DNA from: Ruditapes philippinarum
Lineage: Eukaryota
DNA: 64,000 nt
Direction of reading: 5' to 3'
Assembly (NCBI RefSeq): GCF_026571515.1
Contig: NW_026855039.1
Span: forward strand, 1 to 64,000
Shown here: positions 1-64,000 of the stretch, piece by piece
Layout of the letters: each line of letters begins with the position of its first letter
How positions within the stretch are numbered: position 1 is the stretch's first letter
Translations under genes and position numbers: made by a program
The notes under the pieces: model-generated
What the model was told of the DNA's origin: nothing
What the model saw: the letters and a program-made list of their open reading frames with translations, nothing else
Database searches by the model: none

Positions 1-1234
1 TGTATTGTTGGAAAAAGAGCAAAGTTCGACAACAAAACCATTTTTTAGCCAAACTCAACATCTAAGTCCCATAATTTTGCATGTCGAATATCTGTTGTTT
101 TCCGCCTACTGTGGAGTTGGTGCCAATGAAGCAGATCTTTTGGAAATTTTGTGAAATTAATTAAAACTGTAAGTTTCATTGAGAAAATCAACATAATAAA
201 AGACTTGAAGCTCTTACAAGATTAAGGGTTGTGAAAAGTGACACTAACGATTATAATAAACTGCGATTGATAGTTGATTATGTTAACACTATGCTCGGAC
301 ACATTACGTCGAATGCACATATTTATCAGAAATACACAATGATTTTACAGTCACAGGTTTATGTAGGCATGTCACGGAGCATGTCCAAAATAATTATAAG
401 TAGGAGTAGAAGTAGAAGAAACAAAAGAGGAATATGAGAATGAATAAATAATAAAAAAAGAACAGAAGAAGTGGCAGGAAACGAATAGGAAATAGTGCAA
501 TGTTAATAAGCTGATATAGAAGTAGAAGTTGTAGAAATAATTTGATCAATTTGATCAATGTTTTTCTATCTTATAAAGAGCAGCAAAAAAGTAGCTTATC
601 ACAGAAAAGCATACACTAAGTCTACGTGTGGTACCATAATTTTACATATGCAGCTTTAGAGAACTGAAATTCTTACTTTCAGTCATTTAGATTTTATGTA
701 TTCAGAAAAAATATATCAAAGCAATTTAAGTGATAACAAGAGCCATGTCAACATGGCCATCCCCCGCCGAATGTGTTTGCTCATTGGAAGAATGTATATG
801 TAGTAGAACAGAATAATTCTATTTTAAGAGGTCTTTTGGTAATGAAAACTGATGGCTATAGTGATTACAGATTTGAAACCTATATGAATACTGATGGCTG
901 AAAATAACAAAGGGCAATAACTGAAAAATAATGCAGGGTAGGTTATCATTCTTGTGTGCTGCATCCCTCATCAGTAAAATCTATCCACCTATGAAGTTTC
1001 AAGTTGATACCTCTGTAACGTTTTGACATTTTTACCAAGCTAGATTTTATTAAAGATTATCGTTTGCTGAAATGATTTTAGTGTAACTTTACTATTATGT
1101 TAATTGTTTATGTTGCGACAATGTATTTTAGTTTACGGTACTTTACAATATACGTTTAGTATACGTATTTTCAATAAACGTTTTATATCATATAATATAA
1201 TAATCGTCTCAGTGATAGTGATCATTCTAATCAG

Positions 1235-1310
1235 CCAATGAAAATTAAGTCATGCTTGAGCGATCATCTCAGCAGGTATAAATACGGCGATTAGATCAAA
1301 ATTATTCAGT
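1235..1310 (+). promoter_or_regulatory. LTR Pol II core promoter (CCAAT box, TATA box, TCAGT initiator)
   Basis: CCAAT 1235-1239, TATAAA 1277-1282 and TCAGT 1306-1310 at canonical ~30-nt TATA-Inr spacing. The same motifs occur in the 3' LTR at 4023, 4065 and 4094. Confidence 0.7.
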
Positions 1311-1336
1311 CTGCAGAGGAATTCACCGGGACCAGG

Positions 1337-1716
1337 TTATTCTGTGTAACTGAAGCCTCGCTTCATACATTGAGGATAATTTCGTTCACCTAACTGAAGC
1401 CTAGCTTCATAGGTAGAAAAGAAGAATTGGCCAAAACTAAATACTCTTGTTTATCCAATTGAAGCCTAGCTTCATGGATGTAGATGTAATATATTAAAGT
1501 TTGTGAATTGCATTTGACTCTGGGTACTTATAGATCTCCACATTTTCTGAAAGCCTCGCTATCAGGGAATTGGTAACATATAGGTATTAAAAATCCAGAG
1601 GTAGATTTAAAACGAATTAGATTTGTATAGTTGGAACTTTGTTATAGATCCCTACCAGCAGCTTATCTTCCTATCTAATAGAAGCCTCGCTTCATAGATA
1701 GGGAGGTGGTTGCTGG
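1337..1716 (+). other. Array of five RNA stem-loops sharing an apical UGAAGC-CU(C/A)-GCUUCA motif (second copy at 4125-4504)
   Basis: Cores at 1351, 1395, 1460, 1548 (variant) and 1681. Each sits on a different but base-paired lower stem containing G-U pairs. Confidence 0.75.
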
Positions 1717-1957
1717 ACTATAGGAAATTATCGGGTTGCAGCGTCATATCTATAGCTTTTGAATTATTTCATTGTGTTATAATTACAGTATTGTGACTTT
1801 TGATAATTTAATAGTGTATTACGGAATGTTAATTCAAGCTGATTGTTTATAATATTTGATCATTTAAGAATCATTTGTATCTAATCAAACGGCAGGTAGC
1901 CCAAAGAAAAATTTATTATACATATCTAAATATTCGCTCGGTACACGTTACAAAAAT

Positions 1958-1979
1958 TGGTGGCAGCGACGGTGGGATT
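1958..1979 (+). promoter_or_regulatory. Primer-binding site, tRNA-Leu type, with a 3-nt interruption
   Basis: TGGTGGCAGCG-acg-GTGGGATT versus TGGTGGCAGCGGTGGGATT, the complement of the 3' end of metazoan tRNA-Leu(AAG/TAG). Confidence 0.75.
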
Positions 1980-2031
1980 ATATAGATAAAAACACCATTA
2001 TCTAGACTCACAGGTTAAAATTTCGTTAAAA

Positions 2032-3692
2032 ATGGCTGAGAGTAAAGATTATATAGTTATGAGAATGAGCTTACATTGTTACATGAAAAACTTAGAGAAC
2101 TTCAGCACCAAAATGAAGCTTTGAAATTGCAAAATGAGATATCGGTACTTGAAAGGCAGATAGACAGTATGCAGTTATCTTTTCAAAATCAATATGACTC
2201 AAACTATGAAGGCAAACAAACGTCAACACCTAAATTTTTAACAAGACAATATGCAGCACCTCTATCAGAAAGAAGGCGACGGTTATTACCACCGACTCCA
2301 GATAAAAAGCCCTTTGAAATAGAACGTGACCCTATAAACTCAAATTCAAAACGAAGTGTTATGATGAAGCCAGCTACGTATGATGGAACTAGCTCATGGA
2401 TAGATTATAAAGCGCATTTTGAAGCATGTTCAGAAATTAATCGATGGACAAACAAAGAAAAAGGTCTTTATTTATCTGTTTTATTAAGAGGTCAAGCTCA
2501 GGGTGTATTTGGCAATCTGACAAGCAAATCACCGAATTATGATGAACTTGTATTAGCATTACAAGAAAGGTTTTCACCACCCAATCAAACTGAATTATAT
2601 AGAGCTCAACTAAGAGAAAGAAGACAAAAAGCTACAGAATCTTTATCTGAGATGGGGCAGGACATAAGACGTTTGACTAATTTAGCATACCCTTCAGCAC
2701 CATCAGATGTGAAAGAGACTTTAGCGAAGGAACAATTTATAGATTCTTTGGTTAACTCGGATATGAGGCTTAGAATTAAACAAGCTCGTCCTACTAGCTT
2801 GAATGAAGCAGTAAGACACGCTGTTGAGCTTGAGGCTTTCAACAGAGCAGAACAAAAGTCCTATGAAACCCGTGGTTATATGAGAAAGTTAAATTCTGAT
2901 CAGTATGAGTTTCTGAAAAGTGAAGATGACAAATTAGATAGCCTGACAAAATTAGTAGAGGAAATGAAGAATATGTTATTTATGTTTAGACGCCAAAATA
3001 ACTATCAAACATTTGATAAAAGAAACCGAAATACTTCAAAGCAAAAGCAGAATAATAGAACGTCTTCAAGAACATTTGCTAATGAGCCAAATACAAATAG
3101 TTTGAATTGTTATGAGTGTGGTAAGAAAGGTCATAATAAATACAATTGTCGAAAGTTCAGTGGCAGATCGAAACGAAAAATTAATCTGTTGGAGAAAGAT
3201 TGTGAAAACTCGTCTAATTCGTGTGGTTCCGGGTTATTTGTTGAAGCTACAATAAATGGCATTAAAGCTAATTGTTTAATTGATACTGGTGCAACATTTT
3301 CAATTATTTCTTCAAGTTTTATAGATAGATGTCAGTTTCCAGTAAGTTTAGAACCGTTTGGTACAAACATTGTAAATGCATCTGGAAAACCTTTAGAAAT
3401 AAAAGGAAGAACACATTTAGATATTAAATTGAATGATAGAATTTCAACAAATCCTTTCATAGTTTCTGACATAGAGGGAGATGCAATATTAGGATTAGAT
3501 TTTATGACAGCAAGAAATATTGTAATAGATGTTCCAAATAATCAGTTAACAGCCAATGGTAAAAAGATGAAAATAAATTGTAAAGGTCCGATTGGTTGTA
3601 ACCGCGTGATTTGTCATTTTTGTGGAATGAAATTTAAAAAGAAAGCTTATATAAGACAGCACTGTAGAAGAATACATAGTTCTGGAATATAA
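2032..3692 (+). CDS. Gag (capsid + CCHC knuckle) - aspartic protease - C-terminal C2H2 zinc finger polyprotein; 1-nt frameshift just after the likely ATG
   Basis: Gypsy Gag motif PATYDGTSSWIDYKAHFE...W...LRGQA; knuckle CYECGKKGHNKYNC at 3108-3149; protease LIDTGA at ~3276-3293 with ILGLDF; C2H2 finger CHFC-x12-H-x4-H at 3612-3677. The ATG at 2032 is out of frame with the long frame, which is open from 2046. Confidence 0.9.
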
Positions 3693-3782
3693 ATATAAAT
3701 GAGATTCGGAGTGTGTGTATGCCAAATCTAATTGTTTGAGGCAGCTTAAAACATATTTTGTAAGTTCATGCGGGGCGCATGT

Positions 3783-3801
3783 AAAACGGAGGCGTGGGTA
3801 G
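3783..3801 (+). promoter_or_regulatory. Polypurine tract
   Basis: Purine-rich AAAACGGAGGCGTGGGTAG directly abutting the 3' LTR. Confidence 0.6.
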
Positions 3802-4740
3802 TGTAACGTTTTGACATTTTTACCAAGCTAGATTTTATTAAAGATTATCGTTTGCTGAAATGATTTTAGTGTAACTTTACTATTATGTTAATTGTTTATG
3901 TTGCGACAATGTATTTTAGTTTACGGTACTTTACAATATACGTTTGGTATACGTATTTTCAATGAACGTATGAAATCATATAATATAATAATCGTCTCAG
4001 TGATAGTGATCATTCTAATCAGCCAATGAAAATTAAGTCATGCTTGAGCGATCATCTCAGCAGGTATAAATACGGCGATTAGATCAAAATTATTCAGTCT
4101 GCAGAAAAATTCACCGGGACCAGGTTATTCTGTGTAACTGAAGCCTCGCTTCATACATTGAGGATAATTTCGTTCACCTAACTGAAGCCTAGCTTCATAG
4201 GTAGAAAAGAAGAATTGGCCAAAACTAAATACTCTTGTTTATCCAATTGAAGCCTAGCTTCATGGATGTAGATGTAATATATTAAAGTTTGTGAATTGCA
4301 TTTGACTCTGGGTACTTATAGATCTCCACATTTTCTGAAAGCCTCGCTATCAGGGAATTGGTAACATATAGGTATTAAAAATCCAGAGGTAGATTTAAAA
4401 CGAATTAGATTTGTATAGTTGGAACTTTGTTATAGATCCCTACCAGCAGCTTATCTTCCTATCTAATAGAAGCCTCGCTTCATAGATAGGGAGGTGGTTG
4501 CTGGACTATAGGAAATTATCGGGTTGCAGCGTCATATCTATAGCTTTTGAATTATTTCATTGTGTTATAATTACAGTATTGTGACTTTTGATAATTTAAT
4601 AGTGTATTACGGAATGTTAATTCAAGCTGATTGTTTATAATATTTGATCATTTAAGAATCATTTGTATCTAATCAAACGGCAGGTAGCCCAAAGAAAAAT
4701 TTATTATGCATATCTAAATATTCGCTCGGTACACGTTACA
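3802..4740 (+). repeat. 3' LTR
   Basis: Near-identical direct repeat of 1014-1952. Confidence 0.97.
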
Positions 4741-5856
4741 CCTCAAATACTTTTTGAGAAAAAAATTGAATTGAAAAATTAAGTATGAAAAATAACAAAG
4801 GGCAATAACTCAAAAATTATAAAAGGTAGAGTTACCATTCCTGTGCAGTGCACACCTCCTGAGTGAGATCTATGCACCTATGAAGTTTCATTTTGATATC
4901 TCAAAGGCTTTTTGAGTTATGCTCTGGACAAAAATCAATTTTGAAAAATAACAAAGGGCAATAACTCAAAAATCATGCAAGGTAGAGTTATCATTCTTGT
5001 GCACAGCACTCCTCCTCAATGAGGTCTATCCACATATAACATTCCTCCTCAATAAGATCTATCCACCTATGACATTTCATGTTGATATCTCAAACACTTT
5101 TTGAGTTATGCTCCACTCAGGTGAAAAATTAGGTATGAAAAATAACAAAGGGCAATAACTCAAAAATTATGAAAGGTAGAGTTATCATTCATGTGCACTG
5201 CACACCTCCTGAGTGAGATCTATGCACCTATGAAGTTTCATGTTAATATCTCATAGGATTTTGGAGTTATGCTCTGGACAAAAATCAATTTTGAAAAATA
5301 ACAAAGGGCAATAACTCAAAAATCATGCAAGGTAGAGTTATCATTCTTGTGCACTGCACTCCTCCTCAATGTGGTCTATCCACCTATGAAGTTTCAAGTT
5401 GATAACTCAAATACTTTTAGAGATATGCTCCGGACAAAAATGTCGGACGGAAGGACGGACGGACGGACGGAAGGTCGGACGGACGGACGGAGACTATTTC
5501 TATATCCTCCGCCGAAAATTTTCGGCTGGGGATAATAAACTGGCCACAACTTATTTACAGTTTTGCTCATACCAATAAATGAATAAGACACTTTATTTTA
5601 TGTCTTTTTATAGTCCTATAGCAAACTTTACTGATCTACCGTCACGCATGGAAACAAATGAATGCAATAGGAACATATGCGTATTGGTAAACTATCATAA
5701 TTAGTTTACCACTGTCGGAATAGATTTATACAAACTTTTAAGATATAATAAGCATGTAACGCATGTGATATTTACAGAGAAAACCGGGTGCATATTATGC
5801 TTGTGTCGGATACGATCAATATCTAAAGTGAAAGTTACAGTGGTTTGTTTTATAAA

Positions 5857-8748
5857 ATGGCGGAGTCTATAGAAGACGATTCAAAACCATTTTACAATCA
5901 ATTGTTTCAGTTATTAAAATCGGTACCGACAACAGAGAGTGTGGCTGAAGAAAAAAGTGATCTTCACAGAGCCGCCGTTAAAGGTGACATAGAACTGTTA
6001 AAACAGACTCTGTCTTCTGGACAATGTGAAATTAATCTTCAGGATGACTGGGACCATACCGCCTTATTTACAGCTGTGCAAAAAGGTCACGGCGAAATAG
6101 CAAACATACTTATTTCACACGGAGCAAATATAAATGCGGATAGTAATGAATCATTAAAGGATAGTAATCCATTGCATTGTGTTCGTGATGTAAACATTGC
6201 GAAGGATCTTCTGAAGGCTGGTGGGGATGTTAATGCAATCAATCTAAAGGGTGACACACCTTTACACAGAGCCGTGATGAGGGAGGATTTACCAATAATA
6301 TCATTTTTGTTAGAACATGACGCTGATGTGAACCTACAGAATTATGAGGGTTGGTCCGCCTTACATACTTGCTGTTATCCATCAGGTAGTGAAACTATGG
6401 TGACAGCTATAAAATATATAATTTCACACGGGGGCAATGTGAACTTGCATGACCACTTTGAAATGACACCACTCCACCAACTTGCTAGAGGATCTGCAAC
6501 GAATTTGGCAGTGAAGACGCTTGTTTCGGCAGGATCAGATTTGCACGTCAAAGATTATCGTGGAAACTGTCCAGTCCATTACTTCCGCTCCTTTACAGCT
6601 GACGAAGAGGAGAACTTTATTGAAACTCTGAAAGAATTTATTGTGTCAACAGAAACGGCTAATGTTAGAGATTTCAGAGGTCAAACCCCTCTTCATATAA
6701 ATACAGATACATCTGCTAAAGTAATTGATAAACTAATACATCTGGGTTGTCAAGTAAACGCTCGTGACCACCAAGGAAAGACAGCTCTACATGTTGCGTC
6801 TGGTCTACAAGATAGACAAGATATCATACAGCAACTTTTAAAAACTGGACAAAATGTAAATGTAAAGGATAACATGGGAAGAACATCTTTACATGAGGCA
6901 GCAAAAGCAAGCAACCACGTAATAGCACAGTTATTGATATCCTATAATGCCGAGCCAAATGCGCGGGACATCTGCGGATGCACACCTCTTCACGAAGCTG
7001 CTTTAAAGCAAGATGCTAGAACAGTAGACATCCTCTTAAAGAGTGGTGCAGTTATTAACATCACAGACATAAACTTGTCGACTCCTCTCCACTTTGCAGC
7101 ATGGGAGGATAGTGAAAAGTCGGCAGAGTTTCTACTAGCTAATGGTGCAAATATCAACTTAAAAGATAATCTTGGTCATACACCTTTGGATATAGCACAA
7201 CTAAGAAGAGCAGTAAATGTAGCCGGCTTACTGACTTGCAGCGATCATAAAAGTGAGGCCAAGAATAAGGTAGAAAAAAATGAAAATATGTTTGCACTTT
7301 CAAATTGTGGAGGTCAATATCTTTCATTTAACACTGTTTCAAAGACAATTGAAGAAAATGAGATTACGAGAAAGGATCAGATGGAAGTTCAACCATTTCT
7401 AAGACTTATATTACAATCACCTGATGTAGGAAGAGGTTGCGATGAAGCCGAGGCTAGAGAAATTCAATTGGCAATGGAAGAGCTAGTGCAAACTTTGGCT
7501 GAAAGAATTGGAAAAACCGACTGGAGATTTCGATGTTCGCTGCTTCATGCAGGGAGTATGTCAGAAGGAACTAAAACACGATGTCCAGATGAGTTTGATT
7601 TCATATTTGTTTTGGAAGAGTTCAGTAAGCACTGTTATCCTGTCTTTTTAGACATTGATAGCGAAACGCTCACCGGTCTTCATATACCATCAAATATGAC
7701 TGGAAGGAGAGATTTGCCGGCTGAAACTGTTAAACTAGAAGACCGACCAAGCACAGTGGAACGGACATTATCAGTGTCGGTATCAGATTACGCTAATATA
7801 ACAATTAACAATACAGAAGAATCTGAACCTTTTGCTAAGTTTGCTGGATCGACTATCATGCCGGTATATAAGATGTATGATGGTTTTGCGCAACTTATCA
7901 CAAAAGTATTATTTCATGAAACTTTCCCGAAGAACCCAAAGTTAACAGTCATTGAGACAACTCTAGATCCAGCCATGAAACTTTGTTGGAGAGGATGCAG
8001 ATACAAAGATTTAGAAATAGACGTTGATTTGGTACCTGCAATTGTTCTTCAAGAATGGCCCGAACAGTTCAAAAAGGATAACATCCTTCTGACACCGGAT
8101 ATCCTGAGATTACCAAGCCTTGTTGTGCCTAAAATGACAGCAGGGACAGATGAAGATTTGTGGAGGTGTTCACTTGCTCCTGAAGAATCAGCTATCTTTA
8201 GGAAATTGAAACCAGCCATAAGGAACAGCTATGTGGCATGTAAAGCACTTATCTGCTCACACGTTTGTCCTCAAATTAGCTTTGATGGGAATGAGGAAGT
8301 AATGAGTTTTTATAGAATGGAACACGACAGTCTTTCTTCTGAAGAAAGTATTGAAGTTTTTGAAAACGCCGAGCATATTGTTCCTTCTTACATGCTAAAA
8401 ATGACTTTCTTTGCTGCTATTGCAAGCAAAGCTGAAAACGAGGGAATACAAAATGTTTACATGGATGATAGTGACCGATCAGGAAGCTTGGACAGTGGGA
8501 ATACAGAAAACCCCAAAGAAACAAGTGTTTATGGTCCTGCAAAGGAGATGTACGTGGCAGAGAAATTTGATGACTTGGATGTTCCACTTGTGCTTGATGT
8601 TTTCAAAAGATGTGCAGAATGCATTGATAAACGATTTGTGCCATCCTTCTTCAATCCAAAACATAATGTATTAGGTGCACGAGTAATGGAAGGTGATTTA
8701 GAAAAAGTTGCAGTATTTATAACTTTCATTCAGAGATTATTAGCCTAG
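5857..8748 (+). CDS. Ankyrin-repeat cGAS-like receptor (ANK + Mab-21/cGAS nucleotidyltransferase domain), 963 aa, uninterrupted ORF
   Basis: ATG at 5857 (AAAATGG). About 13 ankyrin repeats (TPLHxA...GAxVN) over ~5960-7230. NTase signature AGSMSEGTK...PDEFDFIF at ~7549-7610, third acidic residue in IDVDLVPAI, Mab-21 C-terminal motifs SYMLK and FFNPKHNVL. AATAAA at 8775-8780. Confidence 0.92.
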   Translation: MAESIEDDSKPFYNQLFQLLKSVPTTESVAEEKSDLHRAAVKGDIELLKQTLSSGQCEINLQDDWDHTALFTAVQKGHGEIANILISHGANINADSNESLKDSNPLHCVRDVNIAKDLLKAGGDVNAINLKGDTPLHRAVMREDLPIISFLLEHDADVNLQNYEGWSALHTCCYPSGSETMVTAIKYIISHGGNVNLHDHFEMTPLHQLARGSATNLAVKTLVSAGSDLHVKDYRGNCPVHYFRSFTADEEENFIETLKEFIVSTETANVRDFRGQTPLHINTDTSAKVIDKLIHLGCQVNARDHQGKTALHVASGLQDRQDIIQQLLKTGQNVNVKDNMGRTSLHEAAKASNHVIAQLLISYNAEPNARDICGCTPLHEAALKQDARTVDILLKSGAVINITDINLSTPLHFAAWEDSEKSAEFLLANGANINLKDNLGHTPLDIAQLRRAVNVAGLLTCSDHKSEAKNKVEKNENMFALSNCGGQYLSFNTVSKTIEENEITRKDQMEVQPFLRLILQSPDVGRGCDEAEAREIQLAMEELVQTLAERIGKTDWRFRCSLLHAGSMSEGTKTRCPDEFDFIFVLEEFSKHCYPVFLDIDSETLTGLHIPSNMTGRRDLPAETVKLEDRPSTVERTLSVSVSDYANITINNTEESEPFAKFAGSTIMPVYKMYDGFAQLITKVLFHETFPKNPKLTVIETTLDPAMKLCWRGCRYKDLEIDVDLVPAIVLQEWPEQFKKDNILLTPDILRLPSLVVPKMTAGTDEDLWRCSLAPEESAIFRKLKPAIRNSYVACKALICSHVCPQISFDGNEEVMSFYRMEHDSLSSEESIEVFENAEHIVPSYMLKMTFFAAIASKAENEGIQNVYMDDSDRSGSLDSGNTENPKETSVYGPAKEMYVAEKFDDLDVPLVLDVFKRCAECIDKRFVPSFFNPKHNVLGARVMEGDLEKVAVFITFIQRLLA

Positions 8749-45581: not shown

Positions 45582-47376
45582 CTACGACTTTTTGGAACAG
45601 ATTCCATGTACTTTTTGTGTTCCACTTTTCAGAGGAAGGACAGGTTTAATATCGCGATTTGAAAAAAATTTAAACTGCATGCTTTTTATTGCCCCTTGGA
45701 AACCATTAACGTATCTTGTGTGTATTTCACGTGAGTGTGCAGAAAAACCGCAATAGTTTTTTTTGGGTACTGCGCCAATTTTGATTGCACCACCACAGGT
45801 ATATCGAAGGACAACTGTTAATTTGTACGGAGAACTTGCTTTTTTGAGTATTAATTCTGGAATTATTTTAATAACGTTGTTGTCTTGGTGTTGCATTTTA
45901 AAATCTTGTTTAAAGCTAAGACTTTCAATAGTGACACTACCTGATATATCTAGGTTTAGGTATTCAGGGAGTTCCAACTCTTCAATTGGCTTTAAAACGT
46001 ATCCTTTTACTTCATTCCATATTGACTCGACTTGTACAATCAATTTATTACGAGACATTTCTTTATCTTTTTTAGTTATACTTTGAATTTGTTTATGATA
46101 CTCATTTTCAAACGGGGAATACAGAGACTTTTTCAATGTTTCATACGGACACAATTTTCCAATAACAATTTTTGATAAACACACATCTCGTCCTACAACT
46201 ATTTGAACTGTACTTGAAATGCTATCATGTACTGTGTATTTGTTCTCTCCACTTGCCAAACTATTTTCTTCACCTTTACAATAACCTAACATTTCTTGGA
46301 CTGTCTCGGTCTCCGAAATACGCCCAACACTGGAGTTTGTAGAAACGGATATACCCGATATTCTATTGATGTAACCTGAAATATCGGCATATTCTTCTAC
46401 TGAAAAATATCCTCTTCTACTCACACTTCTTAGTAATGATTCACTTGTCATAGTTGGTATCCGTACTTGATAAAAACACTCGCCGAGATATTTACGGACA
46501 TTCGTGCCGTTAACTTCTTCTCCATTTTCTGCAATCTTCTTTCTTGCCCATTTATCAACTGCTTCCAATATCTTTGTTTCATCTGCATACAATGTATCAC
46601 CTTTTAGAATATACAGCAGGCATTTCTCATTCAGATTCATAAAGCTGTCAGATTTAAGGACTTCCAATGCATGGTTGTCGATAAAAGAACAGCAGGTGTC
46701 TCTCAGTGCAGTGAGGTCGTACAACATCGCGTTACTGAGAACATCACATGCGTTATCCGTTGTAATGACATTCATCAAAAAGACTGCACAAAACTGTACA
46801 AGACTGGAAACTTGGTAGCAGTGAGCTGTACGCAAAATTTCAAACACTGTTTCTGTAGAAAGGTCCACAGTATCACTGTATACGTACCTAGAGAAAATGT
46901 AGAATGATTAACAACATATTCGGTAGGAAAAAATGATTTTAATGTTTAATTGTTGTGAAAGAGCATTAATGTAGACACCATTTAGATTTAAAAGGACATT
47001 TAAAAAAAGTTTCACTAAATATATAAACTTGTAAAAATAGAGTTATTTTAATATCACAGGTTATTTACCTAAGGAATAAGTCGAATGTTTCCCTTGTTAC
47101 GTGTTCCAGTTCCACCTGGTCATTCTTGTCAGCACATGGACCAAAGAACATTGCCTGAAACACTTGACTTCTAGCAGCTAAAACTGTCTTGTGCGCTTTG
47201 ATTGTAGCCACCTCAGCGTGATCTTTGAAACGAAAAATCACATCAGTCCAAAGACTTTGGTTATACATTTCTAACAAACATGCTCCCAGACCTTTGTTCT
47301 GTTGACAGCCGACGGTATACGTCTGTAGGGCGTCTGTAGAGCGTTGTAGAACGTGAACAGCGTCATCTGACTCCAT
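45582..47376 (-). CDS. BTB/POZ-BACK domain protein, BTBD1/2/3/6-like (copy B, intact; 2 coding exons, 537 aa)
   Basis: Exons 47376-47069 and 46887-45582. Motifs WTDVIF...IKAHKTVLAARSQVFQAMFFG, FLRYVYSD, and BACK-type E..ILEAVDKWA...VRIPTMT. Confidence 0.9.
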
Positions 47377-61928: not shown

Positions 61929-63264
61929 TTATTCTACTGTACCAGAGTTTTCTTGTACGTTTTTCTGTTCATTTGCGCTTTTATTTGTAAGTCCAAGTAC
62001 TGGTTCTATGTCACGATTTGAGAAATTTTTAAACCCCATACTTTTGATAGCCCCTGGGAAACCTTCAACATAACTTGTGCGTATATGACAAAAATTTTGT
62101 TTAGCAGCAGGCAAATGTTTTGAGGCTTCAGAAAAATCACGATAAGGTTTCTTTGCTACCTTTTCGCCAATTCCGATTGCACCACCACAGCTATATCGAA
62201 GGACAACTTTTAAATTATACGGAGAACTTTCCTTTTTGAGTATTAACTCTGGAATTACATTAATAACGTTGTCATCTTGGTGCAGTTGTCTTATTTGAAA
62301 ATCTTGTGTAAAGCTAAGACTTTCAATAGCGACACTGCATGATATATCAAGACTCAGGTTTTCCGGGAGTTCTAACTCTTCAATTGGCTCTAAAACGTAT
62401 CCTTTAATTTCTTGCAGTAATATTGACTTCACTTGTACAATTGTACCCCGATACACGTTTATATCGTTTTGAGATATTCTTTGAGTTTGTTTGTAAAACT
62501 CGTCTTCAGACCATGCAGACGGAGAATACAGAGACTTTCTCAATTGTTCATACGGACAAAATTTTCCAAGAACAACATTTGATAAACACACATCTCTTTC
62601 TACATCTATTAGAACTGTACTGGAAATGCTGTTACGTATGTATTTGTCCTCTTCTTTTGCAGCACACCCTATTATCACTGTTTCTGTCTCCCGAATACGC
62701 TTTACACTGGAATTTGTAGAAACGGAAACATCCGGAATCCTATTTATGTAACCTGAAATATCGGCATATTCTTCTACTGAGAAATATCCCTTTCTACTTA
62801 CACTTCTAAGTAATAATTCACTTGTCAAAGTTGGAACCCGAACTTGATAAAAACACTCGCCGAGATATTTACGGACATTCGTGCCGTTAACTTCTTCTTT
62901 ATTTTCTGCAATCTTCTTTCTTGCCCATTTATCAACTGCTTCAAATATCTTTGTTTCATCGGCATACAATGTATCACCTTTTAGAATGTAAAGGAGGCAT
63001 TTCTCATTCAGGTTCATAAAACTTTCAGATTCGAGGACTTCCAATGCATGGTTGTCGACAAAAGAACAGCAGGTGTCTCTCAGTGCAGTGAGGTCGTACA
63101 ACATCGCGTTATTGAGAACATCACATGCGTTTTCCGTTGTAATGACATTCATCAAAAAGTCTCCACAATATTGTACAAGACTAGAGACTTGATAGAAGTG
63201 AGCTATACGCAAAATATCAAACGCTGTTTCTACAGAAAGGTCCAGGGTTTCACTGTATATGTAC
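61929..63264 (-). CDS. BTB/POZ-BACK domain protein copy C, large last exon (first coding exon not in window)
   Basis: Same phase-2 acceptor (CTAG|GTAC) as copies A and B; open frame YIYSETLDLSVETAF...ENSGTVE*. Confidence 0.85.
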
Positions 63265-64000
63265 CTAGTGAAAAATGTAAAACGGTTTGAGTTAAGTAAC
63301 ATTGTTTATGCTTATAAGTTAAAGTAATAACACCATAACGTACATTCTAACAAACATAATATGATACATATGTACATTGTAAAACTATCTAATACCTAGG
63401 AAATTTAGATATTTCAAGGCCAATACGGCAAGATCTAGGTCATTATGCAATTTTTGTCGCCTTGCTTATTACTTTTTTCAATAATGGGCGAGTAAATGAA
63501 CGCACGTGTAAAATGACGTAATCAACTTTCAGTGACATTTAAGATAGCTGCTGACGTTGAACGAACTGTTAGATGACATAATCAAACACAGTATTGAAGA
63601 AGACCTTTTATCTCAAGAAAATATCCAATAACTGACTCCAAGCCAAATCATGATCCGAAAATGACTTCAGATTGACGATAGATCTACTCTATAAACATGA
63701 AAGGAGAAATTTCAAAAACGATATTAAAGCTAAAGAATTTCTTCTAGTTGAGTATATAGATCTAGATTTAGCGCTACATCTCGCGACAGATCTTAAGACA
63801 ATAACAGCCAATTTGCAACAAAAGAAGAACCATAACCATCAACAAGAAAGGGAAAGGATCGGGGATATCTAGACCTAGATTTATGACTTGACAACATCAG
63901 AACGTTCTGGAGCGCACAAACATGTAAGTTATAATGCACTTGAGCACTTGATTGTCCTATCTGTTTTATAGTGGGGGGGGATAATGTAAAGCGTGTAAGA

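Follow-up and report, generated by a model that had tools for sequence, protein, structure and literature searches.

A mobile Ty3/Gypsy family of Ruditapes philippinarum lacks pol and carries a C2H2 zinc finger in frame with Gag and protease, seen here in a frameshifted copy

The element described here lies in a 64,000-nucleotide stretch of the Ruditapes philippinarum genome (the window). It is a frameshifted member of a mobile family without pol; the family probably borrows reverse transcriptase (RT) and integrase from a full-length relative in mixed particles, and its zinc finger likely binds nucleic acid. We give this reading a probability of roughly 0.7. The family (family A) is of the Ty3/Gypsy type and comprises ∼30 copies, which arose through insertions of their own. 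A first-pass annotation had described intact LTRs, a target duplication, a primer-binding site, a polypurine tract and a 1849-bp interior, with Gag, protease and a C2H2 finger following one another in a single frame, and this layout was confirmed:

1010..1013, no strand: left target-site duplication, CCTC
1014..1952, + strand: 5' LTR, 939 bp
1277, + strand: TATAAATA within the 5' LTR
∼1353, 1397, 1462, 1551 and 1682, + strand: five AAGCnnnGCT hairpin motifs in the 5' LTR
1958..1979, + strand: primer-binding site, complementary to the tRNA-Leu(TAG) 3' end
2032..2053, + strand: Gag start codon (2032) and a frameshift private to this copy (∼2051–2053)
2046..3692, + strand: Gag-protease-C2H2 reading frame, 548 aa stop to stop
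2346..2870, + strand: capsid region, strongest purifying selection, 95% aa identity to the full-length element L063
3108..3149, + strand: CCHC nucleocapsid knuckle, seen in the sequence
3216..3605, + strand: retropepsin-type aspartic protease, DTG at 3282
3600..3614, + strand: deletion junction, from homology breakpoints against L063
3612..3677, + strand: C2H2 zinc finger, from a post-integrase tail
3783..3801, + strand: purine-rich tract ahead of the 3' LTR, common to L063 and other full-length relatives
3802..4740, + strand: 3' LTR, 939 bp
4741..4744, no strand: right target-site duplication, CCTC

The element totals 3727 bp, with a conserved ORF, and has the features of an LTR retrotransposon: paired TG...CA LTRs (8 mismatches and no gaps between the 5' and 3' copies), a target duplication, a primer site and a purine tract. 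The match between the primer site and the 3' terminus of the genomic tRNA-Leu(TAG) is interrupted by 3 extra bases following the first 11, and the 5' LTR hairpins likely lie in the R/U5 leader, as placed from the TATA position. The stop of the frame is 109 bp upstream of the 3' LTR. Pfam matches within the frame are to Retrotrans_gag and aspartyl protease; RT, RNase H and integrase domains are absent, and the element is thus not an autonomous Ty3/Gypsy. The order protease-RT-RNase H-integrase typical of Ty3/Gypsy is present by Pfam in the full-length L063, L064, L065, L069 and L070, and the Gag and protease of the element cluster with L063 in trees. The ATG of this copy is out of frame with its Gag frame because of the small frameshift near 2051–2053, which was present in none of the other copies (25 compared); this copy is not an intact gene.

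The first-pass annotation had offered either a one-off deletion or a mobile satellite family, to be told apart by searching the genome with the protease-finger junction. This search returned 34 matches, 30 of which span the whole junction. Both LTRs were complete in 22 of the 33 stretches examined, and 20 of these 22 copies have their own 4-bp target duplication, with no BLAST match among the insertion flanks. LTR pairs diverge by 0–3.8% within copies, the mean difference between copies is 7.6%, pol is absent from all 22 complete copies (interiors 0.6–2.7 kb), and the ORF is open from ATG to finger in 12 of 25. The junction is therefore not unique to this locus, nor do the other copies carry full pol, and it is the mobile family that stands. 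Contigs from three of four other sequencing runs bridge the junction, so it is no assembly artefact; one 2376-nt contig (depth 39) spans it, from a run only guessed to be RNA. The frameshift near the start of this copy would suit a dead one-off deletion, but ∼30 insertions with their own duplications, together with the bridging contigs, rule this out along with an artefact, and we consider the chance of either practically nil. Runs labelled RNA-Seq were set aside as evidence of expression: two yield 73–74% of reads diverging at GATC sites, a mark of Hi-C DNA, and a third, from which no reads were recovered, is not evidence on expression.

The finger has the pattern C-x2-C-x12-H-x4-H, and its four zinc ligands are invariant in 25 of 25 copies. 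A profile built from 8 related fingers matches solved C2H2 proteins (best E 2e-13), and the structure model predicts a hairpin and a helix (pLDDT ∼78–85). By pattern, profile match and modelled fold it is a classical C2H2 finger, which alone falls below the Pfam cut-off (zf-C2H2 E 0.21; zf-C2H2_4 E 0.033).

A 3' accessory ORF had been suggested as the source of the finger, and this does not hold in the closest relatives: a C2H2 sits 82–129 aa past the integrase C-terminal domain, in frame with Gag-Pol, in 7 of 7 integrase-bearing ORFs examined. Homology to the L063 protease end stops at ∼3607, homology to the L063 finger begins at ∼3606–3612, and the finger DNA aligns with that of L063 (score 52.5 vs. 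a maximum of 40 for shuffles); ∼3.3 kb of RT-RNase H-integrase is missing relative to L063. Since the finger is the Gag-Pol tail in full-length relatives, these alignments show that a deletion of RT-RNase H-integrase fused protease to finger in frame, and that the finger is not foreign cargo. In other lineages the equivalent module may be a separate ORF, pol in the distant protein P0042 terminating just ahead of it. An origin from spliced helper RNA was not supported by sequence comparison because junctions differ by lineage (4–113 aa past the protease). Two precise deletions flanking the finger were also considered, as the 79 nt past the last His are unmatched in L063, but dropped, since short-tailed full-length relatives exist. 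Because two of these, L082 and L113, end 7–9 aa past the finger, the only part of the tail that short-tailed relatives retain, the near-3' place of the family A finger may be inherited and the finger kept partly by position. The proposed search for an autonomous partner led to L063, the sole close full-length relative, which carries the finger and shares the primer site, LTR ends, purine tract and 80% of the 3' LTR half. L063 occurs only once, however, and a stop interrupts its integrase region; this assembly therefore does not reveal an intact helper.

Selection was assessed in 24 family A copies, with variants common to at least two copies counted as shared. The dN/dS comparison that the earlier annotation had proposed gave a purifying signal, with 0.38 for shared vs. 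0.79 for private variants over the whole ORF. The finger has 4 shared replacements where 22 would be expected (P 3e-6), and its synonymous changes are close to the expected number (3 vs. 4.0), while the CCHC knuckle had no measurable depletion (15 vs. 19.8 expected, P 0.17); these P values are rough because the finger offers only ∼10 synonymous sites and the counts ignore kinship among copies. Capsid, protease and finger are depleted of inherited amino-acid changes, and constraint is stronger on the finger than on the nucleocapsid knuckle. This, and a family B protein (below) that has no CCHC knuckle, fit a nucleic-acid role for the finger. Within the frame, no frameshift occurs in more than 5 of 25 copies, the maximum case being an A run, and a 2-nt indel directly past the last His divides the copies 14/11.

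Two further families were found in the same genome. Family B has the parent L069, a tRNA-Lys-type primer site and duplications in 8 of 10 complete copies; family C joins Gag to an N-terminal piece of integrase and the finger, has the parent L065, and is represented by 3 complete copies, all with duplications. We read the three families as separate pol-less deletions in one genome, from different parents, each with the finger in frame. Retention of the same finger by two other families suggests that it likely serves some function by itself. It was the finger that led to A and C, and only B is free of that bias; the finger signal in B is weak (2 shared replacements vs. 6.9 expected, P 0.03).

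Fusions were also found elsewhere: 23 of 236 retrieved protease-bearing proteins have a C2H2 4–113 aa from the protease and no pol, and 21 proteins with a protease-to-finger fusion come from other sources, these including 10 Mytilus gene models that are possibly spliced predictions. No LTRs or duplications were seen for any of these 21. Eight of the fusion proteins lie on contigs too short for pol as an intron. No loci for the non-host fusion P0126 were found in metagenome contigs, and a word search with the junction of P0011 gave no further fusions. A single origin was rejected on the protease tree (p-AU 1e-91; P0091, with no DTG match, left out), and with it one ancient satellite swapping capsids. 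A lost post-protease cleavage motif does not set the fusions apart, GC[YF]R occurring in 9 of 22 of them vs. 11 of 23 RT-bearing proteins. A finger-less, Gag-only pol-less element was seen once (L147), and L058, L060 and L123 have lost the capsid with finger DNA still present.

The finger could be a passenger, kept because deletions have to spare the nearby 3' end and conserved through an RNA signal or in appearance through a small sample. Its low overall DNA diversity (0.046), the short-tailed full-length relatives, the Gag-only element and the capsid-less derivatives that retain finger DNA would all accommodate this. We nevertheless consider it unlikely, as replacements in the finger are depleted and synonymous changes are not, the frame is unconstrained directly past the last His, there are many separate in-frame junctions, and families B and C stop 8–9 and 48 aa past the finger, where their parents extend for 229–245 aa.

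Capsids are 95% (A) and 96% (B) identical in amino acids to those of the helpers (dS 0.11–0.12), whereas proteases are 65% and 51% identical (dS 0.87 and 1.66) and the family A finger is 59% identical to that of L063 (dS 1.6). Because capsids reach 95–96% and protease and finger only 51–65%, a helper-like capsid beside an old, diverged protease and finger suggests mixed particles. Satellite Gag would co-assemble with the single-ORF Gag-Pol of the helper, which would explain the matched capsids; template switching would keep the two matched, and helper enzymes would act on the LTR ends, tRNA-Leu site and purine tract that both elements have. As the last module of every Gag-protease chain, the finger would be enclosed in the particle, where it may help to retain or package RNA or cDNA of the element itself, finger-bearing deletions then being favoured over Gag-only ones; this part of the proposal is tentative, and we rate it at slightly less than even.

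Other roles for the finger were weighed within the same mobile family. The earlier suggestion that a released finger reads the LTR hairpins (GAAGC-nnn-GCTTC) is not borne out and is very unlikely: each of the 22 family A 5' LTRs has 3–5 copies of the motif, L063 has two and L082/L096 have three, but AAGCnnnGCT is missing from family B and from four full-length elements (L069, L065, L066 and L070), all with a similar finger, and one zinc finger reads ∼3 bases. It is possible, though rather improbable, that the finger serves to bring the particle or integration complex into the nucleus or to dock it on chromatin, rather than to capture RNA. Integrase tails of other Ty3/Gypsy elements have such roles, the finger is an integrase tail in full-length relatives and alone of that tail persists in short-tailed ones, it is very basic (KFKKK...RQHCRRIH), and in family C it adjoins the integrase N-terminal zinc domain; however, without an integrase core it could steer integration only by touching the helper's complex, and the target duplications have no strong sequence preference. 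Lastly, the finger might bind the helper's finger or integrase tail, drawing scarce Gag-Pol into particles rich in satellite Gag. Single C2H2 fingers often mediate protein contacts and every family retains the finger of its own parent lineage, yet it is the capsid (95% identical to L063) and not the finger (59%) that tracks the helper, which makes this distinctly unlikely.

The preferred reading, a pol-less satellite with a nucleic-acid-binding finger that shares particles with a helper, has counterparts in plants, where Gag-supplying satellite retrotransposons are known (PMC9744471, PMC11302176, PMC4350172; comparisons follow the available portions of the cited papers). The semi-autonomous wheat Gypsy elements RLG_Sabrina_SA and RLG_WHAM have long co-evolved with the autonomous RLG_Wilma and are proposed Gag suppliers (PMC9744471); as in these, a Gag-protease ORF is intact in the family with no RT or integrase. 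Unlike them, the present elements are from an animal, have a C2H2 in frame (the available text of PMC9744471 mentions no zinc finger) and have several origins. In the einkorn pair RLG_Quinta/RLG_Cereba, the Quinta Gag is far from that of its helper and an extra domain, DUF1, is of unknown origin (PMC11302176). Like Quinta, the present element descends from a Gypsy with one ORF, has primer site, LTR ends and purine tract in common with its putative helper, retains Gag plus one extra domain, and recombines; here, in contrast, the capsid is nearly helper-identical and the extra domain is the helper's integrase-tail finger. As with Sabrina, WHAM and Quinta, family A is multi-copy, with its own insertions, no RT or integrase and a kept ORF (12/25 open, dN/dS 0.38), and we infer from capsid identity that its Gag is supplied to shared particles.

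Plant TR-GAG elements (PMC4350172, in its available part) are likewise <4 kb, with LTRs, primer site, purine tract and a single ORF with Gag, but their Gag is Copia-like and aspartic protease is excluded, whereas the present element combines a Gypsy-like Gag, an intact DTG protease and a C2H2. TRIMs including Helenus (<1 kb and non-coding in the available part of PMC10886601) differ from a 3727-bp element with a conserved ORF. The full-length Ty3/Gypsy relatives in this genome (L063, L065, L069, L082 and others) share Gag, protease, LTR ends, primer site, purine tract and C2H2, but in these the protease and the finger are separated by RT, RNase H and integrase. Membership in the named mollusc Gypsy clade (Mag C-clade, MolGy1-16; PMC6238403) would be judged by position in an RT tree with reference elements. 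In the literature searched, with Repbase and most subscription journals outside its scope, we found neither a description of Gag-supplying satellites in bivalves nor a report of any C2H2 finger behind integrase in this Gypsy clade, and the available portions of PMC2836005 and PMC10886601 yielded nothing on a Gag-protease-finger layout; such families may already stand in Repbase or subscription journals as unnamed non-autonomous entries.

We see an even chance that a single-ORF Gypsy clade has repeatedly spawned Gag-plus-finger satellites across bivalves, in which RT and integrase are dropped, the capsid is matched by recombination, and the finger on every Gag wins packaging or nuclear delivery, or excess Gag is supplied beyond what a single-ORF helper is able to produce. 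If true, this would mean that a class of semi-autonomous retrotransposons in animals has been overlooked, and an integrase-tail domain not described before would gain its first function. Three deletions in one genome, with more elsewhere, form a natural deletion series of the parts needed in cis when enzymes are borrowed, one that singles out a 22-residue finger, and matched capsids with old proteases make helper-satellite co-packaging testable from sequence alone. Pol-less satellites of this kind escape RT-dependent pipelines, and annotation lists them as host 'C2H2' or 'CCHC-domain' genes.

The window copy of family A, the pol-less LTR elements in which an in-frame junction joins the protease to a C2H2 zinc finger where RT-RNase H-integrase is missing, was read from its sequence as follows:

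1014-4740: family A element, interior of 1849 bp
2046-3692: open frame with Gag, CCHC knuckle, aspartic protease (DTG) and C2H2 pattern, in that order

The LTRs, target duplication and 1849-bp interior described in the first-pass annotation were all recovered: the LTRs are 939 bp each, start with TGTAACG, finish with CGTTACA and differ at 8 sites with no gaps, and CCTC lies on both sides of the element. The Gag-protease-finger ORF stood in so far as all three parts share the frame 2046-3692, but in this copy the start codon at 2032 belongs to a different frame because of a small private frameshift near 2051-2053. By structure matching, the protease fold resembled Ddi1 and retroviral proteases; the top named protein match (77% identical) carries the label Ruditapes philippinarum in its source, and other named matches were mostly bivalve, which makes a clam the likely host. 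The insertion site is a host repeat of ∼156-bp units (891-1013 and 4741-5530), whose end carries a GGAC-rich segment plus a palindrome (5503-5534); it resembles bivalve Helentron-type repeats. An intronless 973-aa ORF at 5827-8748 (+), starting 1.1 kb past the element, has the look of a cGAS-like receptor with ankyrins: ∼7 ankyrin blocks precede a Mab-21 nucleotidyltransferase domain (Pfam E 1e-4, narrowly missing the cut-off). A pair of similar BTB-BACK ORFs on the minus strand (441 aa at 45585-46907, 458 aa at 61932-63305) is likely a local duplication.

A genome search with the 302-bp junction region, whose matches are a lower bound, returned at least 34 places, at least 30 of them across the full length, and the junction was bridged by contigs from three of four other sequencing runs. 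The 33 other places were fetched as 32 stretches, to which the window copy was added for an LTR census. Both LTRs were complete in 22 copies, 20 of which had their own 4-bp duplication, and no pair of left flanks matched; seven of nine solo LTRs checked also had duplications. Pol was sought inside the family A copies and found in none. Family A has thus spread by its own insertions, as the earlier suggestion of a mobile family held, and the alternative of a one-off deletion is contradicted by the many full-length junctions and the consistent lack of pol. Complete copies have interiors of 0.6–2.7 kb, mainly 1.85 or 2.03 kb depending on an in-frame 180-nt segment of Gag; one copy has 5.5 kb between its LTRs through inserted tandem repeats. 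Because LTR pairs differ by 0–3.8% and copies by 7.6% on average, the family has been mobile both for long and recently.

Several variants were seen along the way. Two miniature derivatives (L058, G000:C6508; L060, G000:C5617; interiors 637–647 bp) share a single deletion that brings the finger up against the Gag N-terminus (in frame in L058), and L051 (G000:C2460:927-10538) holds two interiors in tandem around a common middle LTR. About half of the family A copies have the same three extra bases within their primer site (e.g. window 1958-1979), and these also occur in other lineages (L121, L147). The tRNA-Leu 3'-end motif forms tandem arrays at G000:C13702 101736-109515 (12 copies) and C9372 258347-264906 (5 copies). 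Reads of runs X22 and X23, labelled RNA-Seq, break at GATC sites like Hi-C libraries.

Used as separate queries, the protease and the finger matched the same contigs, 3.3–3.8 kb apart, and in all seven integrase-bearing ORFs examined, two of them (L069 and L070) picked from the protease list alone, a C2H2 finger lay in the same frame 82–129 aa beyond the integrase C-terminal domain. In the closest full-length relative, L063 (Gag-protease DNA 85–87% identical), homology to family A passes from the protease end to the finger no more than about two codons from the first Cys. Sequence homology indicates that the finger derives from the post-integrase tail of a full-length parent. Two full-length relatives (L082, L113) stop 7–9 aa past the finger, and therefore one deletion from a short-tailed parent suffices for family A. 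A candidate for the anticipated autonomous partner is L063, which shares LTR ends, primer site and purine tract and has its finger after the integrase, but no other copy of its RT exceeds 77% identity and a stop interrupts its integrase region. Its 5' LTR holds a 340-bp insertion (1577-1915; G000:C9785) whose tRNA-like head and poly(A) tail mark it as a likely SINE.

Family B (parent L069), discovered by a protease search that disregarded the finger, has 785-bp LTRs, a ∼2.45-kb interior, a primer site unlike that of family A and the layout Gag-protease-linker-CPxC-C2H2, with no knuckle and a stop 8–9 aa past the finger. Some 18 places show a match to the greater part of its junction region; complete copies have duplications at 8 of 10 and an open frame in 4 of 10. 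Family C (parent L065), discovered via the finger, encodes Gag, an integrase N-terminal piece and C2H2 with no protease (7 full matches; 3 complete copies, each with duplications). Of 264 retrieved proteins, 236 had a protease, and 23 of these carried a C2H2 4–113 aa from it and no pol: two from families A and B, ten Mytilus gene models, which might be spliced predictions, and 11 from ENA, JGI or Logan contigs, 8 of which leave no room for a hidden pol. On the protease tree family A paired with L063 (99/91) and family B with L069 (100/99), and one common origin of 13 fusions was rejected (p-AU 1e-91); the capsid tree requires at least six changes. Judged from these sequences, pol-less Gag(-protease)-finger elements have arisen repeatedly. 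Against this, no mobility was seen for the fusions from other sources when their loci were sought, and there is one pol-less element from a capsid search and 13 further stretches, L147 (G000:C10956; 1104-bp interior, own duplication, single sighting), which encodes the Gag capsid region alone, with protease and finger absent. Three proteins (P0042, P0050, P0104) join Gag-protease to the integrase C-terminal domain, with RT and core missing, and are possibly another kind of pol-less derivative.

Selection was assessed on 25 aligned family A interiors (nine of the 32 fetched stretches, which were truncated, rearranged or interrupted, were set aside); 12 of the 25 are open from ATG to finger. In 24 copies, with one tandem duplicate removed, the proposed dN/dS comparison gave 0.38 for variants shared by at least two copies vs 0.79 for private variants, as expected if inherited changes underwent selection and post-insertion changes did not. 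Observed vs expected shared replacements came to 29/162 in the capsid, 46.5/120 in the protease, 64.5/74 in the linker, 15/20 in the knuckle and 4/22 in the finger (P 3e-6), counts that are only indicative since relatedness among copies was ignored and the finger has ∼10 synonymous sites. The finger is thus depleted of shared replacements; that of family B had 2 vs 6.9 expected (P 0.03). In family A, the four ligands of the finger are invariant in all 25 copies, the copies fall 14/11 for a 2-nt indel immediately past the last His that alters the tail, and inside the frame no frameshift occurs in more than 5 copies, that one in an A run. The finger is probably under protein-level selection, and that it is a mere passenger seems improbable. 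In Gag, the C-terminal end of each chain is the inner end. We tentatively favour nucleic-acid binding inside the particle, because the finger is basic, sits at this inner end and is more constrained than the knuckle, which family B lacks. Nuclear import or chromatin docking is a rather unlikely role, and contact with the helper's tail is less likely still than a passenger finger. Reading of the LTR hairpins, as first proposed, is very improbable, the motif being missing from family B and from four finger-bearing helpers.

Between family A and L063, the N-terminus and capsid are 93–95% identical (dS 0.28 and 0.11), vs 61% for the linker, 65% for the protease (dS 0.87) and 59% for the finger (dS 1.6). 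The corresponding values for family B and L069 are 96%, 96%, 64%, 51% and 56%, and family C DNA is 96% identical to L065 across the LTR and Gag start and 74% beyond. The nearest neighbour of the window copy varies along its length. By these comparisons, satellite capsids match those of their helpers, and we infer that the satellites are old and were refitted with helper capsid and ends through template switching in shared particles. An L063-type helper, supplying RT and integrase, would mobilise family A in trans (probability roughly 0.9). Family A would work like the wheat Gag-protease semi-autonomous elements and shows sequence features given for them (PMC9744471); by the descriptions in PMC4350172 and PMC10886601, it belongs to neither TR-GAG nor TRIM. 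In the literature outside Repbase, we found no such elements described in bivalves and no post-integrase C2H2 finger in this clade. Helper Gag and Pol occupy a single frame of ∼2000 aa; therefore the satellite's extra Gag could benefit the helpers too, as proposed for RLG_Quinta (PMC11302176).
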